Assembly (NCBI GenBank): GCA_964635715.1
Contig: CAZWNZ010000001.1
Location: 138,358-202,357 of the forward strand
DNA length: 64,000 bases
Direction of reading: 5' to 3'
Origin: an uncultured Gammaproteobacteria bacterium
GTDB taxonomy: Bacteria > Patescibacteriota > Microgenomatia > UBA8517
Part shown: in pieces, positions 6,092-19,193 of the stretch
How the letters are laid out: each line of letters begins with the position of its first letter
Numbering within the stretch: position 1 is the first letter of the stretch
The notes under the pieces: model-generated
The model's input: the letters and a program-made list of their open reading frames with translations, nothing else
Told to the model about the DNA's origin: nothing
Databases searched by the model: none
Program-made: the position numbers and the translations under genes

Positions 6092-6185
6092 AAGACTATG
6101 GCTCTACTTCGCTAGAGCTTCGAAGAGCACTTCTTCGATAGGAGTGCTGCGCGCTTCGAAACTCCAACAAGGTTGGAGTGAAGAA

Positions 6186-6550
6186 GTGGAGACGGCGGGA
6201 ATCGAACCCGCGTCCGAAAATACTATAAACAATACTTCTACAAGCTTATTAGATCTTTTTTTATTTTCTTTTAATTTAAGTCGATCTACAAACAATCAAA
6301 AGTAAGGCTAATTTAGTTTCAGCTACTAGCTATCAGCCGTTAGCTATTAGTTATATCCCGGATTGGTTTACACCCTTTTGATCCGGCCGAGATTCAGATC
6401 TAAGGACGCAACTTAAGCGTACGCTACTGCGTAGTTAGGTTGGGCTTGGAATAAATTCCTAGCTTTTATTTTTTAATCCCTTTTGACAAGTGATGATCAA
6501 ACTTGGCTTGCTGTATTGTAAAGAGCTCTCCGTCGAAACCGATCGTCCCC
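6186..6550 (-). ncRNA. ssrA: tmRNA (SsrA)
   Basis: The reverse strand reads 5' GGGGACGATCGGTTTCGACGGAG... and ends ...GGACGCGGGTTCGATTCCCGCCGTCTCCAC. The acceptor stem is GGGGACG/CGUCUCC with a G3:U pair. An internal frame reads ...AQPNYAVAYA followed by a stop, which fits a tag peptide. smpB is adjacent. Confidence 0.8.
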
Positions 6551-7792: not shown

Positions 7793-8155
7793 ATTGAAAT
7801 CGATTTATATAATGATATAATCCCTTCCAGAGCTGGAAATTCGGAAAACCCTGAGAGGTGGCTAGTTTGATCATCACGCCTTGTCTGACAATTGCGTCAG
7901 TACATATATTTAAAGTGATGGAACAAGCTCAAGGTTCGATTCCTTGTAGGGTGAAGAGGGTTTTCTAAAGACGCGCAGAATAGGTGGGAGGCTATGATAG
8001 TGTGATGAAGGTCACAAAGGAGCCGTCAATGAAATACTACCCCCTTTAGTTTTAAGAAATTATAAAAAAATACCCGATCACGTTTTCCAGCTCCACCCTC
8101 TTTCTCTCCAATTAAGCAGTAATTACGTTCCATTTTTGATATAATGATCGAGCTT
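7793..8155. other. 360-nt non-coding region with tRNA-like T-arm and a 10-nt long-range complementarity (candidate structured RNA)
   Basis: Contains GGTTCGATTCC (7938-7948). GAGCTGGAAA (7833-7842) is the exact reverse complement of TTTCCAGCTC (8073-8082). No ORF longer than the spurious track entries. Confidence 0.3.
8137..8145 (+). promoter_or_regulatory. Extended -10 element TGaTATAAT upstream of tRNA-Ser
   Basis: TGATATAAT lies 10 nt before the tRNA 5' end. The same style occurs upstream of tRNA-Asn (17767-17775) and tRNA-Ile (62899-62907). Confidence 0.5.
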
Positions 8156-8239
8156 GGAGGATATGCCGAGCGGTTAAGGCAATTGTTCGCTAAACAATGT
8201 CGCGCAAGCGACCGACAGGTTCGACTCCTGTATCCTCCG
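8156..8239 (+). tRNA. tRNA-Ser (type II; anticodon probably GCU, C at position 33 is unusual)
   Basis: GGAGGAT...Ser-type D-arm GCCGAGCGGTTAAGGC, long variable arm, T-arm ACAGGTTCGACTCCTGT, acceptor ATCCTCC plus G. CCA is not encoded. Confidence 0.7.
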
Positions 8240-8244
8240 CCCAT

Positions 8245-8326
8245 GGTGGGCGGGCAGGACGGTAATGCGCGGGTCTTGAAAACCCGTGGGAGCAATCCCT
8301 AACAGGTTCGACCCCTGTGCCCACCG
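8245..8326 (+). tRNA. tRNA-Ser(UGA)
   Basis: GGTGGGC..., anticodon loop CTTGAAA, long variable arm, T-arm ACAGGTTCGACCCCTGT, acceptor GCCCACC plus G. Confidence 0.8.
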
Positions 8327-8345
8327 CACTTCTTTGTTTTATCAA

Positions 8346-8359
8346 CTTCTGTTATAATA
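8346..8359 (+). promoter_or_regulatory. Conserved promoter-like box CTTCTGTTATAATA (extended -10), copy 1
   Basis: An identical 14-mer recurs at 10056-10069. Here the TATAAT ends 6 nt before the ATG at 8365, which implies a leaderless mRNA. Confidence 0.5.
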
Positions 8360-8364
8360 CGCAT

Positions 8365-8913
8365 ATGGAATCTGCCTCCAATCCTGCCGATAGCACATTA
8401 AATGGGGAACCACAGGCAGTGGTCGTAAGAAGAGAAGCAGAACGTGATATTATCACCTGGGTAGCTCCAGCAAGACCTTTTAAAAGGTATGGTAGAAAAT
8501 TTTATGTCACCGTTTTTTCCATAATCGGAATTATCGGTATAATTTTTTTTATAGCTGAAGGCATTATGCCAGTGATACTTTTAATTTCCCTAACCTTTTT
8601 ATTTTATGTTTTGTCTACTGTTCAGCCTGAAAATATTGAATATAAGATAACAAACAGAGGGGTTAAAATTGCAGGTAGAGAAACACCTTGGCAAAGTTTG
8701 GTCAAATTTTGCTTCTCACAGAAATCCGGGAGTGATGTTTTGGTATTTGAGATGATTCCACTTCCCGGTAGAATGGAACTTGTCGTAAAGTCTGAAATTA
8801 AAGAAAGTCTCAGAAAGGAAATCTCCGCGTATATTCCATACGAGGAAATTCCACCCTCCTTTTTAGACAAAATTTTAAACTGGATTGTTAAAAAACTACC
8901 TGAGAACGATTGA
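8365..8913 (+). CDS. Hypothetical 2-TM membrane protein
   Basis: The ORF-track start at 8317 overlaps tRNA-Ser. The ATG at 8365 (MESASNP) follows the -10 box. Two central hydrophobic helices. Confidence 0.5.
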   Translation: MESASNPADSTLNGEPQAVVVRREAERDIITWVAPARPFKRYGRKFYVTVFSIIGIIGIIFFIAEGIMPVILLISLTFLFYVLSTVQPENIEYKITNRGVKIAGRETPWQSLVKFCFSQKSGSDVLVFEMIPLPGRMELVVKSEIKESLRKEISAYIPYEEIPPSFLDKILNWIVKKLPEND

Positions 8914-8936
8914 GAGTCTTACTCTGCAAAGTATTA

Positions 8937-9008
8937 GCGCCTGTAGCTTAATGGATAGAGTTGAGCCTTGCGGAGGCTTAGGTCCCAGTTCAACTCTGGG
9001 CAGGCGCA
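8937..9008 (+). tRNA. tRNA-Arg(GCG)
   Basis: GCGCCTG TA GCTTAATGGATAGAGT (Arg-type D-arm), anticodon arm GAGCC-TTGCGGA-GGCTT, T-arm CCCAGTTCAACTCTGGG, acceptor CAGGCGC plus A. Confidence 0.7.
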
Positions 9009-9013
9009 CTCAA

Positions 9014-9095
9014 GGTGGGTGGGCGGGACGGTAACGCGTTGGTTTCGAAAACCAATTCTCGCAAGGGATAACAAGTTCGACTCTTGTACCCACCG
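9014..9095 (+). tRNA. tRNA-Ser(CGA)
   Basis: GGTGGGT..., anticodon loop TTCGAAA, long variable arm, T-arm CAAGTTCGACTCTTG, acceptor ACCCACC plus G. Confidence 0.8.
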
Positions 9096-9110
9096 CTAAG
9101 AATTAAAAGT

Positions 9111-9563
9111 ATGAATAGTAAAAATAATCAGCAAATTTTAATAGGTGGAGCCATTGTTTTTAAAGACAATCGTGGCAAACGCCAATTTCTTTTGGTGAAA
9201 ACAAAAGAAGATGGGGATTGGGAAATTCCCAAAGTTACCGTTAGACGTGGAGAATCTTCTGTGCGTGCCGTTATAAGACTTACAGGAGAACAAGGTGGAA
9301 TTACTGCCAGAGTATTAGAAGAAGCGGGAAGATATTCCGGAAATGCCATTATCAACGGAAACTCCATGCCTCAAAAACATTATTATTATTTAATGCTTCA
9401 AAAGGGGGGATCAAGCGAATTGATAGGCTTCCAGAATTTTAAGTGGATGGACGCGGTTAACGTAAACAAAAAACTGGATTCGAAAAAAGAGAAAGAAATG
9501 TTTAAGTCGGCGCGTGACGTATTAAAAGAGTGGGAAACAACACACAAGGTAAAAACATACTAA
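9111..9563 (+). CDS. NUDIX-fold protein with degenerate Nudix box
   Basis: GESSVRAVIRLTGEQGG loosely resembles GX5EX7REUXEEXGU. The ORF-track start at 9084 overlaps the tRNA; the ATG at 9111 is used. Confidence 0.5.
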   Translation: MNSKNNQQILIGGAIVFKDNRGKRQFLLVKTKEDGDWEIPKVTVRRGESSVRAVIRLTGEQGGITARVLEEAGRYSGNAIINGNSMPQKHYYYLMLQKGGSSELIGFQNFKWMDAVNVNKKLDSKKEKEMFKSARDVLKEWETTHKVKTY

Positions 9564-10042
9564 CCCGTGAGTTCTCTTCCGGAGGCGTGGTGTACAAAAG
9601 ATCAGGAAATAAAATATTTTGGTTGATTCGAAAAACAATGGTGAGTGACTTATTTCCTGAGTGTTATTGGATGCTGCCCAAGGGCTGGTTGGATGATGCC
9701 GGAGACGGAATGCCTGGCCCAATGGCTTCAGGCAGGAAAAAAGCGGATGAAAAAACACTCCAGAAAACAGCAATAAGAGAAGTCGAGGAAGAAACGGGTG
9801 TTAATGCGAAAATTGTAGGCAAAATCGAAACAGCAAAATATTTTTACACTCATCCACAGAGAGGGAGAATATTAAAATTTGTTACATTTTATCTTATGGA
9901 ATGGACCCGTGATTTACCTGAAGGTTTTGACGGAGAAACGTCAGAAATTGACTGGCTTCCGTTTGAAAATGCATCGAAAAAGTTGTCTTTTGATAAGGAA
10001 AGAGAAGTTTTAAGTAACGCTTACAAATTATTACCTCATTAA
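9530..10042 (+). CDS. NUDIX hydrolase
   Basis: Canonical Nudix box GRKKADEKTLQKTAIREVEEETGV. Confidence 0.75.
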   Translation: MGNNTQGKNILTREFSSGGVVYKRSGNKIFWLIRKTMVSDLFPECYWMLPKGWLDDAGDGMPGPMASGRKKADEKTLQKTAIREVEEETGVNAKIVGKIETAKYFYTHPQRGRILKFVTFYLMEWTRDLPEGFDGETSEIDWLPFENASKKLSFDKEREVLSNAYKLLPH

Positions 10043-10055
10043 TCCAATCAAGTAG

Positions 10056-10069
10056 CTTCTGTTATAATA
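10056..10069 (+). promoter_or_regulatory. Conserved promoter-like box CTTCTGTTATAATA, copy 2, upstream of tRNA-Ser(GGA)
   Basis: Exact repeat of the 8346-8359 box. TATAAT ends 12 nt before the tRNA. Confidence 0.5.
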
Positions 10070-10080
10070 TGCCTACAATT

Positions 10081-10165
10081 GGAGGAGTCGCCTAGTGGCC
10101 TATGGCACGGGTTTGGAAAACCCGGACTCGCAAGAGTCTCGTGAGTTCGAATCTCACCTCCTCCG
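10081..10165 (+). tRNA. tRNA-Ser(GGA)
   Basis: GGAGGAG TC GCC TAGTGGCCTAT GGC, anticodon arm CGGGT-TTGGAAA-ACCCG, long variable arm, T-arm GTGAGTTCGAATCTCAC, acceptor CTCCTCC plus G. Confidence 0.8.
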
Positions 10166-10349
10166 CAAATAAAATTTGCGTTGGATCTGCGATTCGGTAC
10201 TGGGGTATAAGTGTGTACGGCGAATCTCACTTCCTCCGCTCGTCAGAGCAAGACTTTGTCGCTTCATTCCGACCATGTCGGAATGTTCGCTGCTTTTAGT
10301 CTGCTCTTCCTCTCAAAATTGCTTAGCAATTTTGTTGACACAAGAACAC

Positions 10350-16239: not shown

Positions 16240-17403
16240 TTATGTAGCTCCCAGCTCTCCTGGAGGCAAATATCTGGGTTTAAGTCCACGGTCAATTCCA
16301 GCCAAAACATTGATAACATCATCGGGGCGGTGTGACGAAAAATTTACGCTATATACCGGGTCTAGTAATTTATCATGCAACAAGTTTTCGGAGAGGCTTC
16401 TATCCGTGTTTTCTATTACCAAGTTGTCAACCAGGGTTCTCAGTGCTCTTTCTTGGTTTTCATTATATTCGCTAATTTGGACAGACCATTTTATTTCTGG
16501 CCCGTCATTAGAAGACTCCTTGTTTTGAGTAATCAATAATTTACTTCCAAAACCATAATCATCGCCGACCTGGGACAGGTCTTCATCTAAATTTTCTCTC
16601 CCCATTATCTTATCTCTGCCGTTCGGAGAAACATACAAAGTAACTTCGTAAGTTTTGCTTTCAGGATCGTAATTACAGTTGGGTTTGAGTTCTTCCGGCA
16701 GGTGTTTATTTTTATGAGCAAGACGTAGAGAAGCAATTCTGGCTAAATCTTTTATTTCCCGGATTGTTTTGTGTCTTACTTCCTCTTCCTTTTGTTCTTT
16801 TCTTAAATCTGCAGTGAATGCGGCAACTGCATGATCTAACGTAGCGTTAGGATAGGTTAATTCAAATTTGGAAGGTGTAAAACTAATGGCGTTGGTGGTT
16901 GGGGAGACATCGGCTCTTTCGTTAAATTTTCTGGATATTATAAATTGACCATTGTGATCTTTTGAAACTAAAGCAATCGGCTGTAGGCTTTTATCTTTTA
17001 ACTTATAATCGGGTTTGACCTCTGGTTTAAAGGAAATAATGCTTGCTGGGACGTTTGCTCCTATCAAGATAGTTCTTTTGGGAGCGTCAAAACTGCCTTC
17101 GGTTGGAGCTATATGAATATTGCCGGATTCAGTGTCTCCATATATAAAAAACGTGTTTCCTGAGGCTGATTCTTCCGTTCCCCCTGGCCTTAGAATTCCC
17201 AAACTAGTAACTTCTTTTCCTCTCATTACTAAAATATCAGACCATTCTTGATTTGGATTCAAGCGTATTTGAGCTCCGTCGGCCTTTATTGTTTCACCAA
17301 AAGAATCTGTCTCCGGAATAAAAATCATTGAGGGATAAGACAATTTTTCTTGGTTAACTGGGTGTTCAGACATATAAATATCAGTATATAGGCGAATTGA
17401 CAC
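16240..17403 (-). CDS. Hypothetical soluble protein, no recognisable domain
   Basis: 387 aa, no TM helix and no motif I can assign. Confidence 0.35.
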   Translation of the reverse strand: MSIRLYTDIYMSEHPVNQEKLSYPSMIFIPETDSFGETIKADGAQIRLNPNQEWSDILVMRGKEVTSLGILRPGGTEESASGNTFFIYGDTESGNIHIAPTEGSFDAPKRTILIGANVPASIISFKPEVKPDYKLKDKSLQPIALVSKDHNGQFIISRKFNERADVSPTTNAISFTPSKFELTYPNATLDHAVAAFTADLRKEQKEEEVRHKTIREIKDLARIASLRLAHKNKHLPEELKPNCNYDPESKTYEVTLYVSPNGRDKIMGRENLDEDLSQVGDDYGFGSKLLITQNKESSNDGPEIKWSVQISEYNENQERALRTLVDNLVIENTDRSLSENLLHDKLLDPVYSVNFSSHRPDDVINVLAGIDRGLKPRYLPPGELGAT

Positions 17404-17430
17404 AAGCTCAATTACATTCTAATATGAATT

Positions 17431-17769
17431 ATGCCCAATAAAACCCGAACAAAAGATACTAGAACCTATCGTGATAGGGCGCATTATTTAGTTCTTGCAG
17501 TTGCCAAAAGAAGACGAAAGTTAAAATCCATGGCGGTGGAATTAAAAGGGGGTAAATGCCAAATTTGTGGATACAATAAATATGTTGGGGCGTTGTCTTT
17601 TCATCATTTAGATGAAAAAAGTAAATCATTTGATTTATCAACAAAAGGTTTAACAAGAAGTTGGGAAAAAACAAAAGAAGAAGTCAATAAATGTATATTG
17701 GTTTGTGAAAATTGTCACAGGGAAATCCATGGGGGATTAATAAAGCTTCCAGTTAAGCTCAATGTTTGA
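17431..17769 (+). CDS. HNH endonuclease
   Basis: CQICGYNKYVGALSFHHLDEK...LVCENCHREIH is an HNH/zinc-finger nuclease signature. Confidence 0.7.
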   Translation: MPNKTRTKDTRTYRDRAHYLVLAVAKRRRKLKSMAVELKGGKCQICGYNKYVGALSFHHLDEKSKSFDLSTKGLTRSWEKTKEEVNKCILVCENCHREIHGGLIKLPVKLNV

Positions 17770-17792
17770 TATAATCAGTCGTTCATTAATAA

Positions 17793-18069
17793 TCCCCGGT
17801 AGCTCAGCGGTAGAGCGGATTCCTGTGATTTCTTAGCAGCTCTTAAAGGAAACTTTAAGATGAAAACTGGGAGAATTGCGTGAAGCCCCTGTCATTTTGA
17901 CGAGGTAACCCGCAGCCGAGCCCTAATAAAAATTAGGGAAGGTTCAGAAACTATGTACCCAGACACCTCGTTTATTCTGTAAACAAGTGCAAGATATAGT
18001 TCCGCGTCCCACAGAAATGTGGGGGAGCGAGTAAGAATAAGGTCGCTGGTCCGAATCCAGCCCGGGGAG
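17793..18069 (+). tRNA. tRNA-Asn(GUU) interrupted by a 205-nt intron in the anticodon loop
   Basis: 5' exon TCCCCGG TA GCTCAGCGGTAGAGC G GATTC CTGT (17793-17826). 3' exon TAA GAATA AGGTC GCTGGTCCGAATCCAGC CCGGGGA G (18032-18069). Spliced anticodon loop is CUGUUAA. U1-A72 and discriminator G are typical for bacterial tRNA-Asn. Confidence 0.7.
17827..18031 (+). ncRNA. Group I-like self-splicing intron inside tRNA-Asn
   Basis: Exon ends in U and intron ends in G. Exon CUGU can pair with intron GCAG (P1 with a U-G wobble at the splice site). P2 hairpin CTCTTAAAG-GAAA-CTTTAAGA. P3 pairing GACGAGGT/ACCTCGT. GCCGAGCC and GAAGGU core-like segments. Terminal hairpin CCCACA-GAAA-TGTGGG. Size matches the small IC3-type tRNA introns. 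Confidence 0.6.
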
Positions 18070-18106
18070 CACTTCGGCAAGCTCAGTGCAAGCACAATTT
18101 TTGACA

Positions 18107-18403
18107 ATGAACAAGGACTGGTATGTTTATATGCTTCTTTGTGATCAGAAAACTTTTTATGTTGGGATTACTCCAGATTTATTAGAAAGAATGAGAAAAC
18201 ATGGGGACAAGCTGTCGTTTTTTACTAAAAAGTTTTCTGATCTGAAACTGGTTTATTGCGAAAAATATCGAAGCAAATTTGATGTTGCAAAAAGAGAAAA
18301 ACAAATAAAAGGTTGGAGTAGAGCAAAGAAGCAAAAGTTGATAAATGGAGAATTAGGTGTTAATACTTGTACTGAGATTGCCAAAGCTCTTTTGGGCGGA
18401 TGA
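18107..18403 (+). CDS. GIY-YIG nuclease-domain protein (YhbQ/UPF0213-like)
   Basis: MNKDWYVYMLLCDQKTFYVGITPDLLERMRKH. Starts 38 nt after the tRNA-Asn 3' end. Confidence 0.75.
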   Translation: MNKDWYVYMLLCDQKTFYVGITPDLLERMRKHGDKLSFFTKKFSDLKLVYCEKYRSKFDVAKREKQIKGWSRAKKQKLINGELGVNTCTEIAKALLGG

Positions 18404-18478
18404 GGAGTTTACCCTGAGTTTACCGAAGGGAGTCCTCCTGGGGGAGCATTTTGGGGAGGATGATTTAACCAATTATTT

Positions 18479-19105
18479 TTGTTGTATAATCTTCTAATGG
18501 CCGACGCTTCTTCTTCGGAATTTGGTGTTTCAGTTGAAATTGAAAATCCAAATAAGAACATAGATAAAATAACTACCTCCAAAGGTTCAGAATATAAGTA
18601 TTTGATAGACGGAAAGATACAGAGATTCAAAAAGGCGACTGGTGAAGTAATGGCTCCTCAAGATGTTTTGGTATTTATTCCTCCTTATGAGTCGTTAAAG
18701 GGTCAAGAATATTGGTCTAAATATTTACAAGAAAAAGGGATTAATGATCAAAATACTTACGAAAGAGTATTGTTGGATTTTACACGCCCCGGCAAAACAA
18801 TTTTGGTAACCAATAAAGAAGGAAATGAAATCAACAGTAATAATAGCGCCTATGAAATTAAAGGTAGGGGTCAGGGGGTTTATATACAGTTAATTGACAA
18901 AAGTGGTGGAAATTATGATCAAAAATACTTTTTTCCGGTATCAGTCGCTCCAAAAGTTGGTTGGCTAACTTTTGACACCCGCAGATATGAAGAAAATGGT
19001 AAAAAGATGCACGAAAAGCACATCGGCAATTCGGTGGTTGAAATTGGTTTAAAAAAGCCAGGTAATGCTTTTACCAAAGCCATTGAAGCTAGTAAAGGAA
19101 AATAA
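18479..19105 (+). CDS. Hypothetical Lys-rich soluble protein
   Basis: 208 aa with no recognisable motif. Confidence 0.35.
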   Translation: MLYNLLMADASSSEFGVSVEIENPNKNIDKITTSKGSEYKYLIDGKIQRFKKATGEVMAPQDVLVFIPPYESLKGQEYWSKYLQEKGINDQNTYERVLLDFTRPGKTILVTNKEGNEINSNNSAYEIKGRGQGVYIQLIDKSGGNYDQKYFFPVSVAPKVGWLTFDTRRYEENGKKMHEKHIGNSVVEIGLKKPGNAFTKAIEASKGK

Positions 19106-19193
19106 AATGTTGTTTGGATTTGTTCGGATTTAGTCTGGGGAGCTAATTTCTACGGACTTTTTCAGATTTTGAGGCTTCTGATATACTTCGAAT

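Follow-up and report, generated by a model that had tools for sequence, protein, structure and literature searches.

The 64,000-nucleotide stretch of DNA analysed here (the window) covers positions 138,358 to 202,357, forward strand, of contig CAZWNZ010000001.1 in GenBank assembly GCA_964635715.1, which is labelled an uncultured Gammaproteobacteria bacterium and is placed by GTDB in the Patescibacteriota (Microgenomatia; UBA8517). It contains a tRNA-Asn(GUU) gene split by a 205-nucleotide (nt) insert with the features of a group I intron, with a small HNH endonuclease gene directly upstream and a small GIY-YIG nuclease gene directly downstream (Table 1). An earlier sequence-only reading had placed these nuclease genes 24 and 38 nt from the tRNA gene; the order is correct and the distances are 23 nt, counted from the HNH stop codon, and 37 nt. 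In our judgement this one tRNA-Asn(GUU) gene, essential to a Patescibacteria-type bacterium with a tiny genome, probably carries three separately inherited selfish elements, namely the group I intron, the HNH gene and a GIY-YIG cassette.

Table 1. Features of the tRNA-Asn(GUU) locus, in window positions.
Feature	Position	Strand	Remarks
Promoter-like TTGACA-17-TAATAT	17397..17425	+	5 nt before HNH start codon; 10/12 consensus matches
Free-standing HNH endonuclease gene, 112 amino acids, tRNA-Asn-associated family	17431..17769	+	Pfam, PHROG
TGATATAAT, extended -10-like box of tRNA gene	17767..17775	+	overlaps HNH stop codon; read by eye
tRNA-Asn(GUU) exon 1	17793..17826	+	tRNA positions 1-35; CUGU end, last base U
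Group I intron, 205 nt	17827..18031	+	no open reading frame (ORF) on coding strand; ends in omega-G 18031
Guide sequence UUCUUA-GCAG (P10/internal guide sequence)	17830-17839	+	P10 with 3' exon UAAGAA; P1 with 5' exon CUGU
P2	17841-17860	+	GAAA loop, L2 at 17849-17852
P3	17867-17871 x 17958-17962	+	CUGGG x CCCAG
P4	17877-17882 x 17909-17914	+	
P5	17888-17905	+	
P6/6a	17916-17942	+	
P7	17947-17954 x 17996-18002	+	
P8	17965-17988	+	
P9	18007-18024	+	GAAA loop, L9 at 18014-18017
tRNA-Asn exon 2	18032..18069 (18071 with CA)	+	positions 36-73; discriminator G; T-loop UCCGAAU (C55)
GIY-YIG cassette, 377 bp	18072..18448	+	starts right after GGGGAGCA
Cassette left inverted repeat CTTCGGCAAGCTCAG	18072-18086	+	
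GIY-YIG ORF, 98 amino acids	18107-18403	+	Pfam GIY-YIG 55.7 bits, residues 5-75
Cassette right inverted repeat CTGAGTTTACCGAAG	18414-18428	+	inverted copy of CTTCGGCAAGCTCAG, p = 0.004
tRNA 3'-end mimic GAGTCCTCCTGGGGGAGCA	18430-18448	+	last 19 nt of a tRNA-Asn
Possible third decayed tRNA 3'-end copy GTTCGGATTTAGTCTGGGGAGC	19122..19143	+	73% match, p ~0.04, weak

Removal of the insert in silico yields a 73-nt RNA that ARAGORN identifies as tRNA-Asn(GTT), with a U1-A72 pair and the anticodon loop CUGUUAA. The sequence-only reading had described canonical tRNA halves with this pair, this loop and a discriminator G, interrupted by 205 nt after U35, and all of this is borne out. Exon 1 is identical in five related loci (L108, L002, L010, L199 and L196; L numbers denote loci collected for comparison), and the last 8 nt of exon 2, counted to the CA at 18071, are GGGGAGCA, the insertion target of the GIY-YIG cassette. 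The T-loop with C55 (18049-18055) is common to the window, L108, L109 and L199, and other relatives read UUCGAAU; because several genomes have it, C55 is a lineage trait and not a mark of decay. No second tRNA-Asn gene was found by ARAGORN in the 64-kb window. By default ARAGORN overlooks the unspliced gene, and with the intron option it miscalls it as tRNA-Thr with an intron at position 33. The same kind of artefact affects the genes studied by Nakagawa et al. (mSystems 2026, PMC13011429), whose tRNAs default tools miss or miscall and whose intron positions they shift. Intron-bearing tRNA genes lost to tRNA finders in this way affect genome-completeness scores.

Folding the insert against the Rfam group I model had been proposed as a check, and the full-length model (Intron_gpI, RF00028) matches 17817-18024 with 60.9 bits (E = 5.4e-13; gathering score 50 bits). 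A P1-P10 model was examined for covariation in a MAFFT alignment of 17 short homologues, with shuffles and slid pairing partners as controls. Paired bases fill 88.2% of the cells, compared with 72.8% in shuffles and 36-50% in slid controls, and 37 of the 64 pairs show compensatory changes (8/8 in P2, 3/5 in P3, 4/4 in P6a, 5/5 in P8 and 5/7 in P9). The conserved core, made up of the P3-P7 pseudoknot and the P4-P6 and P8-P9 helices, is present and supported by this covariation. P1 pairs CUGU (17823-17826) with GCAG (17836-17839), and its splice-site U.G pair is invariant in 17/17 homologues. This P1, the exon-final U and intron-final G, the two GNRA-capped hairpins (both loops are GAAA) and the lack of an internal ORF had been read correctly from the sequence. 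Homology and covariation together identify the insert as a group I intron in tRNA-Asn(GUU). A P3-like pairing proposed in the same reading, ACGAGGU/ACCUCGU, has to be given up: it is a perfect 7-bp complement in the window, yet it is only 57.8% paired in relatives (slid controls, 31-50%), and its strands really belong to the 3' side of P5 and the 5' side of P8. L002 and L010 keep the P5 strand and have a different P8, and L010 shows a compensatory G-C to A-U change within P5. The true P3 is CUGGG/CCCAG.

The P7 pair A17949-U18001 lies at the guanosine-binding G-C position, which corresponds to G264-C311 of the Tetrahymena intron, a pair that the bound guanosine joins in a base triple (PMC10020454). 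A-U is found at this position in the window, L002, L010 and L105, and G-C in about 101 other tRNA-Asn introns. A G-C pair here is a near-universal functional feature of group I introns, not a formal criterion; the window intron lacks it and still ends in G. An engineered Tetrahymena ribozyme with the equivalent change, G264A:C311U, reportedly has an altered nucleoside preference. The window intron resembles this mutant in having A-U for G-C at the same P7 pair, but its A-U is a natural variant inherited by four genomes, combined with a terminal G. It is thus a natural version of a classic ribozyme mutation and offers a natural experiment on nucleoside specificity. Because the pair is A-U and not G-C, normal use of guanosine is uncertain, whereas membership in group I holds by homology.

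Group I introns at position 35/36 of tRNA-Asn as well as tRNA-Asp in Patescibacteria have been described by Nakagawa et al. (PMC13011429; preprint July 2025, 10.1101/2025.07.03.662931). The window intron shares with that family the host gene, the 35/36 site, the exon end U, the intron end G and detection by RF00028. Since this class of intron is already published, the window intron is confirmatory and any novelty seen in it earlier has been overtaken; the new elements are the flanks and the G-site variant. In the published survey, tRNA-Asn introns occur in 15/95 complete genomes, most Patescibacteria introns are assigned to subgroup IA, one tRNA-Asn intron self-splices precisely in vitro, and both splicing-assay constructs (one tRNA-Asn, one tRNA-Asp) represent sole genomic copies (PMC13011429). 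Guanosine-dependent self-splicing is on record in vitro only for a Saccharimonadia relative, whose P7 pair is G-C. Four of the published tRNA-Asn introns encode HNH (PF01844) endonucleases, and their supplementary sequences show the ORF in the P1 loop; since most tRNA introns carry no endonuclease gene, the authors concluded that they are probably not very mobile (PMC13011429). Only intron-encoded endonucleases were counted there, whereas the window HNH gene sits outside the tRNA gene. A search of the text of that paper found no mention of free-standing, adjacent or GIY-YIG genes, and the window-clade intron and exon were not found in the accessible part of its supplement. Compared with many Saccharimonadia introns, the window intron is short and lacks a P7.1/7.2-type insert, and its G site is A-U. 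Compact tRNA group I introns such as that of Azoarcus tRNA-Ile are about 205 nt long, lie in the anticodon loop, have a short P1 and GAAA tetraloops on P2 and P9, and carry no ORF. The window intron is like the Azoarcus intron in all these respects and differs in its host tRNA, its insertion at 35/36 and its A-U pair at the G-binding position.

A pattern scan of one genome per species, combining the tRNA-Asn D-arm, CTGT and two intron core motifs, returned 107 loci. Splicing after U35 yields a clean tRNA-Asn in 83 of them, with introns of 193-277 nt, and homologous introns occupy the same site in 57 of 80 metagenome loci that were selected by the HNH protein. The intron loci are mostly Patescibacteria (Saccharibacteria, Woese-, Davies-, Shapiro-, Berkel-, Peregrini-, Gracili- and Parcubacteria), with a few labelled Chloroflexota, Omnitrophota and others; some 'Gammaproteobacteria' labels of metagenome-assembled genomes look doubtful. 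The closest relatives of the window are the Woesebacteria-type loci L010, L105, L002, L108 and L199, and the tRNA of L002 differs from that of the window by one base.

The HNH gene belongs to a family of at least 770 members, about 105-112 amino acids long. Its protein matches the Pfam HNH domain marginally (21.9 bits; cutoff 21.4) and PHROG 2255 with E = 6.5e-28, and has the invariant catalytic and zinc-binding residues H58, H59, N94 and H96 and two CxxC pairs (C43/C46 and C92/C95). An AlphaFold2 model (predicted local distance difference test score 85) shows a long N-terminal helix and a beta-beta-alpha core. Foldseek matches to this model in the PDB are weak, of HNH/Endo VII type (including Cap5, Cas9, Gme HNH and T4 endonuclease VII) and include no close relative; a PDB-sequence profile search gives a marginal McrA match only, and exact-sequence look-ups of the window HNH and GIY-YIG proteins and of P0121 returned no record. 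Within the window clade, the proportion of nonsynonymous differences (pN) is 0.10-0.14, and the proportion of synonymous differences (pS) is saturated at 0.7-0.8, giving a ratio of nonsynonymous to synonymous rates (dN/dS) of ~0.05. Because pN is so low against saturated synonymous divergence, the HNH protein of this clade is under purifying selection.

An iterative profile search with the window HNH protein detected homologues in 21 of the 83 genome loci, nearly all of them directly upstream of the tRNA on the same strand, at a distance of 3-68 nt; the single remote match lies 628 nt downstream in L028. The L002 copy is frameshifted, and those of L055 and L098 are fragments. Metagenome contigs were searched with the HNH protein alone, blind to the intron, and the 80 best loci were sorted by layout. 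In 47 of these (and probably 3 more) the HNH ORF lies inside a tRNA-Asn intron of 500-640 nt (type A), where it occupies the P1 loop, with the 5' splice site before it and the guide sequence after it, its last codons (x-Q-L-P) being at the same time the guide sequence GCAGC and the start of P2. The window layout, with the gene outside the tRNA, is seen in about 10 of the 80 (type B). In 9 the gene adjoins an uninterrupted tRNA-Asn (type D), and 11 are cut by contig ends. In all, the gene is directly upstream as in the window in about 27 loci and downstream in 4-5. An intron is present in ~87% of the resolvable HNH-selected metagenome loci, compared with the published 15/95 genomes, and all resolvable metagenome relatives, like all genome-locus matches except L028, abut or lie in tRNA-Asn. 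Four loci labelled Chloroflexota or Limnocylindria (L028, L033, L059 and L091) have an HNH relative downstream of the intron-bearing tRNA-Asn; this protein is ~310 amino acids long, with two tandem HNH modules and cysteine-rich N-terminal repeats.

Viral contigs contain at least 573 further HNH relatives, 46-66% identical, within phage tRNA arrays, of which 80 loci (L204-L283) were kept. The immediate neighbour is an intronless tRNA-Asn in 57 of these, often 3-8 nt past the HNH stop codon, and only two of the kept loci carry an intron. In L205, L211, L221 and L241 a tRNA-Asn is called on both sides of the HNH gene. Free-standing homing endonuclease genes are found in phage tRNA clusters, examples being T4 SegB and the T5 F-Tfl HNH enzymes. 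The window locus can be likened to these by gene arrangement only, as small nuclease genes among tRNA genes; unlike them, its HNH gene belongs to a bacterial genome and has an intron as its partner. When the phage, A, B and D forms are placed together in one neighbour-joining tree they interleave, and the window clade and its nearest neighbours are all free-standing. L108 and L199 resemble the window in their HNH proteins (78-81% identity) and identical exons, but their introns are only 55% identical to that of the window, and therefore intron and endonuclease gene are exchanged independently. The HNH gene adjoins or lies in its presumed target gene, is patchily distributed (21/83 loci with ORF-less introns) and has left decayed copies; sequence comparison supports a tie to the intron and the tRNA, not chance neighbourhood.

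The promoter-like site upstream of the HNH gene would produce a leaderless or near-leaderless mRNA; sites of this type are no more numerous in the region than in shuffles, which makes it a consensus match only. The box TGATATAAT is conserved 17-18 nt before the tRNA in six type-B loci of the window clade, and the program promoter scan gives a different pairing from that read by eye. Because the HNH-less, intronless allele L196 has TGATATAAT upstream of its tRNA too, the box is predicted to be the promoter region of the tRNA gene itself and an original part of that locus. An interpretation of this box as a fossil of the intron segment J2/3 was rejected for the same promoter region in L196.

On the other side of the tRNA, the GIY-YIG gene lies within a compact cassette. 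The cassette ends read GGGGAGCA-CTTCGGCAAGCTCAG on the left and CCGAAGRGAATCC on the right, and the tRNA 3' end that serves as target has the context ...GAATCCAGCCCGGGGAGCA/N; the cassette of L139 has inverted repeats likewise (p = 0.001). The encoded protein consists of the catalytic domain, with no other Pfam domain. Its relatives in the PDB are the UPF0213 proteins 1zg2 (E = 1e-7) and 1ywl (3e-5), then Slx1, with no I-TevI among them, and Dunin-Horkawicz et al. 2006 assign 1ywl to the Slx-1 cluster (PMC1564403). An I-TevI- or Seg-type homing enzyme was considered and rejected, as the protein has neither a separate DNA-binding domain nor sequence affinity to I-TevI. Accordingly, where the sequence-only reading took both flanking nucleases for relatives of homing endonucleases, this holds for HNH, which has homologues in the same intron and repeats its layout ~27 times, and does not hold for GIY-YIG. 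UPF0213 and prokaryotic Slx1-like proteins are alike in being stand-alone GIY-YIG domains of ~100 amino acids; the window gene differs in lying in a cassette with inverted repeats and a tRNA-end copy.

The first 187 fetched loci (~1 Mb) yielded 11 small GIY-YIG homologues, and every one of them directly adjoins a tRNA-Asn, on one side or the other. The tRNA end is repeated exactly in L196 and L199 (19 nt), L139 (16 nt) and L109 (15 nt; a different subfamily). In L198, L200 and L188 no tRNA is present and a bare GGGGAGCA precedes the same cassette, and therefore the 19-nt copy travels with the cassette. L196 has an intronless tRNA-Asn with the exons of the window except for T55 in place of C55, no HNH gene, and the cassette. 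This allele is decisive: because it has the cassette without the intron and without the HNH gene, GIY-YIG is a cassette in its own right, directed at the tRNA 3' end and unrelated to the intron. Alleles with identical exons present the HNH gene, intron and cassette in several combinations: all three in the window and L199, the HNH gene and intron in L108 and L105, the intron alone in L010, and the cassette alone in L196 (exons identical except T55). Among these alleles the three elements assort independently. A comparison with intronless alleles had been suggested in order to see whether both nuclease genes go with the intron; the HNH gene mostly does (~87%), apart from the 9 type-D loci, but L196 combines GIY-YIG with an intronless tRNA and no HNH gene.

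Compared with integrative elements, the cassette has direct repeats of the tRNA 3' end but no integrase or recombinase, its 377 bp holding a single GIY-YIG ORF. We picture that the nuclease would break the 3' end of a naive tRNA-Asn, and that repair would use the tRNA body as left homology and the carried 19-nt copy as a portable right homology arm, the copy also recreating the target site. Tentatively, and with the case for it falling somewhat short of the case against, the cassette may represent an undescribed minimal type of mobile element: a bare Slx1/UPF0213-type nuclease gene of ~0.38 kb with hairpin-forming inverted repeats, which inserts after GGGGAGCA of tRNA-Asn, carries a 19-nt tRNA-end copy as its downstream arm and so moves between genomes that share only the tRNA. 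Together with the HNH family, found in phage arrays, free-standing and in the intron, the locus might then display a series of stages in the combination of nucleases and introns. A limited literature search found no report of mobile-cassette behaviour, inverted-repeat ends or tRNA-end repeats in the UPF0213/Slx1-like group, and literature searches for small GIY-YIG genes at bacterial tRNA genes found nothing relevant. If this proposal is true, a carried tRNA-end copy may be a new way for a nuclease gene to become portable.

Other-subfamily GIY-YIG cassettes lie upstream of tRNA-Asn in L154/L160, L090 and L118, where they are preceded by pseudo 5' tRNA fragments composed of the acceptor strand, a GC-rich hairpin and GTAGCTC; L118 has two such upstream units in tandem. 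After the tRNA of L002, the segment 3433-3484 resembles the cassette's left end at first (ACTTCGGCAAG) but diverges farther on; the contig ends after 52 nt, and the segment may be either a different cassette or a remnant.

The layout at the 5' side is an ORF-less intron with an adjacent free-standing endonuclease gene, and the two would probably work side by side. After transcription, the guide sequence would pair with both exons (P10 and P1) and the intron, as judged from its tested relatives, would excise itself by the two usual transesterifications, restoring the anticodon loop. The HNH enzyme would cut tRNA-Asn genes that lack the intron, the HNH gene or both. When the break is repaired, the cut allele would receive copies of the HNH gene and of the intron next to it, and the intron, by interrupting the target, would shield the resident gene. 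Such an arrangement is known in phages as collaborative or trans homing (PMC3984707), and there, too, an ORF-less intron in a conserved gene adjoins a free-standing HNH-type gene. The logic proposed for the window is the same, in that the endonuclease targets the region of intron insertion, the intron immunises it and the two are co-converted; it differs in that the host gene is a tRNA gene on a bacterial chromosome instead of a protein-coding gene of a phage, and in that the nuclease family is also found beside intronless tRNA-Asn. The phage model predicts that the endonuclease gene later invades the intron (PMC3984707), and both states exist within the window HNH family. Indirect support for 35/36 as the target comes from the relatives encoded inside the intron, which must home to that site.

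Several points weigh against this account. The HNH gene adjoins an intact intronless tRNA-Asn in 9 bacterial loci and most phage loci, and because it does, a resident gene can escape cleavage without an intron, the target may not be 35/36, and the intron may not protect. (Changes in the D-stem, considered as a means by which intronless tRNA-Asn could be protected, are enriched in type D, but GCGC stems are also present in intron-bearing genes and the search pattern was biased, which leaves them as a lead only.) The A-U pair, by the Tetrahymena mutant work, should weaken the use of guanosine, and efficient self-splicing is not assured. A gene that benefits its host would show the same long-term purifying selection. 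The HNH trees are neighbour-joining trees of ~100 residues with no support values. As for the cassette, its 98-residue protein has no recognisable DNA-binding domain to direct it to GGGGAGCA, and the tRNA-end copy of the window matches the resident tRNA at 14/19 positions, which is marginal by itself (p ~0.02).

The HNH gene is favoured as a long-standing free-standing homing endonuclease coexisting with an ORF-less intron because the window clade bears no sign of escape from the intron. Recent escape, in which an ORF moved out of the P1 loop to a position upstream of exon 1 and left an ORF-less intron behind, has parallels elsewhere in the family: the same HNH family is intron-encoded in 47 loci, and in the type-B locus L148 a fossil made up of guide sequence, P2 and J2/3 comes after the ORF and is significant by comparison with its type-A sister L170 (p < 0.0005), the likeness ending where P3 should begin, 9 nt before the tRNA. 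Escape has therefore happened at least once, in the L148 lineage. A plausible intermediate is the tandem tRNA-Asn pair at L111:138-1220, with an HNH-containing intron of 584 nt followed, 114 nt on, by an ORF-less intron of 239 nt. Escape is nonetheless unlikely for the window gene. Its codons AAG CTT CCA do resemble CAG CTT CC of the guide sequence and P2, but window-clade tails show no significant likeness beyond 8-9 nt (p ~0.3), and the GLIKL(P) tail is also present in free-standing phage enzymes, which weakened the idea that a 'KLP' tail is a guide-sequence fossil. Moreover, the window clade and its neighbours (L108, L105, L109, L110, L116, L121, L176, L151 and the phage loci L224, L235 and L271) are all free-standing, the -10 box that follows the ORF belongs to the tRNA locus itself, as L196 indicates, and no relic of exon 1 lies upstream of any of the 22 B-type ORFs. 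The same lack of a relic led us to reject deletion between tandem tRNA genes as the origin of the upstream ORF. The sequence-only reading had offered trans-acting homing and an endonuclease that moved out of its intron as two scenarios; the former agrees with a clade that is free-standing only and whose tail is that of its phage relatives, and the latter fits less well here but is realised in L148.

That the HNH gene is a coexisting homing endonuclease has also to be set against its possible domestication, in which it would work for its host or for the intron, for instance by aiding splicing (a maturase) or by keeping up the tRNA locus. Strong purifying selection over saturated synonymous divergence, a position and orientation fixed in many genomes and a G-binding site that looks weakened and might need help would all suit such a role. 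We regard it as improbable, as all catalytic and zinc-binding residues are kept, the gene is present in only 21/83 loci with ORF-less introns, the A-U intron occurs in L010 without an HNH gene and in L002 with a frameshifted one, and HNH relatives adjoin intronless tRNA-Asn in phages. It is likewise improbable that the locus is decaying, with an intron that no longer splices, a C55 pseudogene and a working tRNA-Asn elsewhere, a possibility raised by the A-U pair, the T-loop UCCGAAU and a view confined to 64 kb of the genome. The replacement of G-C by A-U is compensatory and common to four species-level genomes, the exons, P1, P10 and all helices are intact, C55 is common to the window, L108, L109 and L199, the window holds no other tRNA-Asn, and the genes for tRNA-Asn and for tRNA-Asp in the published splicing assay were sole genomic copies (PMC13011429). 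Small nuclease genes are common in such genomes, and the two genes could in principle adjoin the tRNA by chance. This is already refuted: HNH relatives abut or lie in tRNA-Asn in every resolvable metagenome locus and in all genome-locus matches but one, and the 11/11 GIY-YIG relatives abut tRNA-Asn, with exact tRNA-end repeats.

The interest of the locus is moderate. We found no account of the flanking HNH and GIY-YIG genes in the literature searched, and the HNH association extends the published picture. The mobility of these introns may be underestimated, as a quarter of the 'ORF-less' tRNA-Asn introns (21/83) have a homologous endonuclease gene just outside the tRNA, and surveys confined to intron interiors would miss such adjacent genes. 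With one nuclease family in phage arrays, beside bacterial tRNA-Asn with or without an intron, and inside the intron, there is a natural data set on the origin of mobile introns, in which the long-standing model that a mobile intron forms when an intron and a free-standing endonuclease come together at a single site can be tested.

Downstream of the cassette, an ORF of 202 amino acids (18497-19105) precedes the GTTCGGATTTAGTCTGGGGAGC stretch; Pfam, NCBIfam and PHROG gave no match for it, and none of the fetched loci contains a homologue. The segment 18449-19143 may represent one more insertion, into the target site that the cassette had restored. Upstream, an ORF of 387 amino acids on the minus strand (16240-17403) lies between an aminotransferase gene and the HNH gene and likewise drew no match from Pfam, NCBIfam or PHROG and no homologue from the fetched loci. 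The syntenic loci L108 and L199 lack this ORF, and the neighbourhood of the tRNA-Asn is therefore a variable region. Farther away, the window contains a transfer-messenger RNA gene on the minus strand (6184-6550) with the tag ARNLFQAQPNYAVAYA, and four tRNA-Ser genes and one tRNA-Arg gene at 8155-10166, with protein ORFs and no nuclease genes between them.

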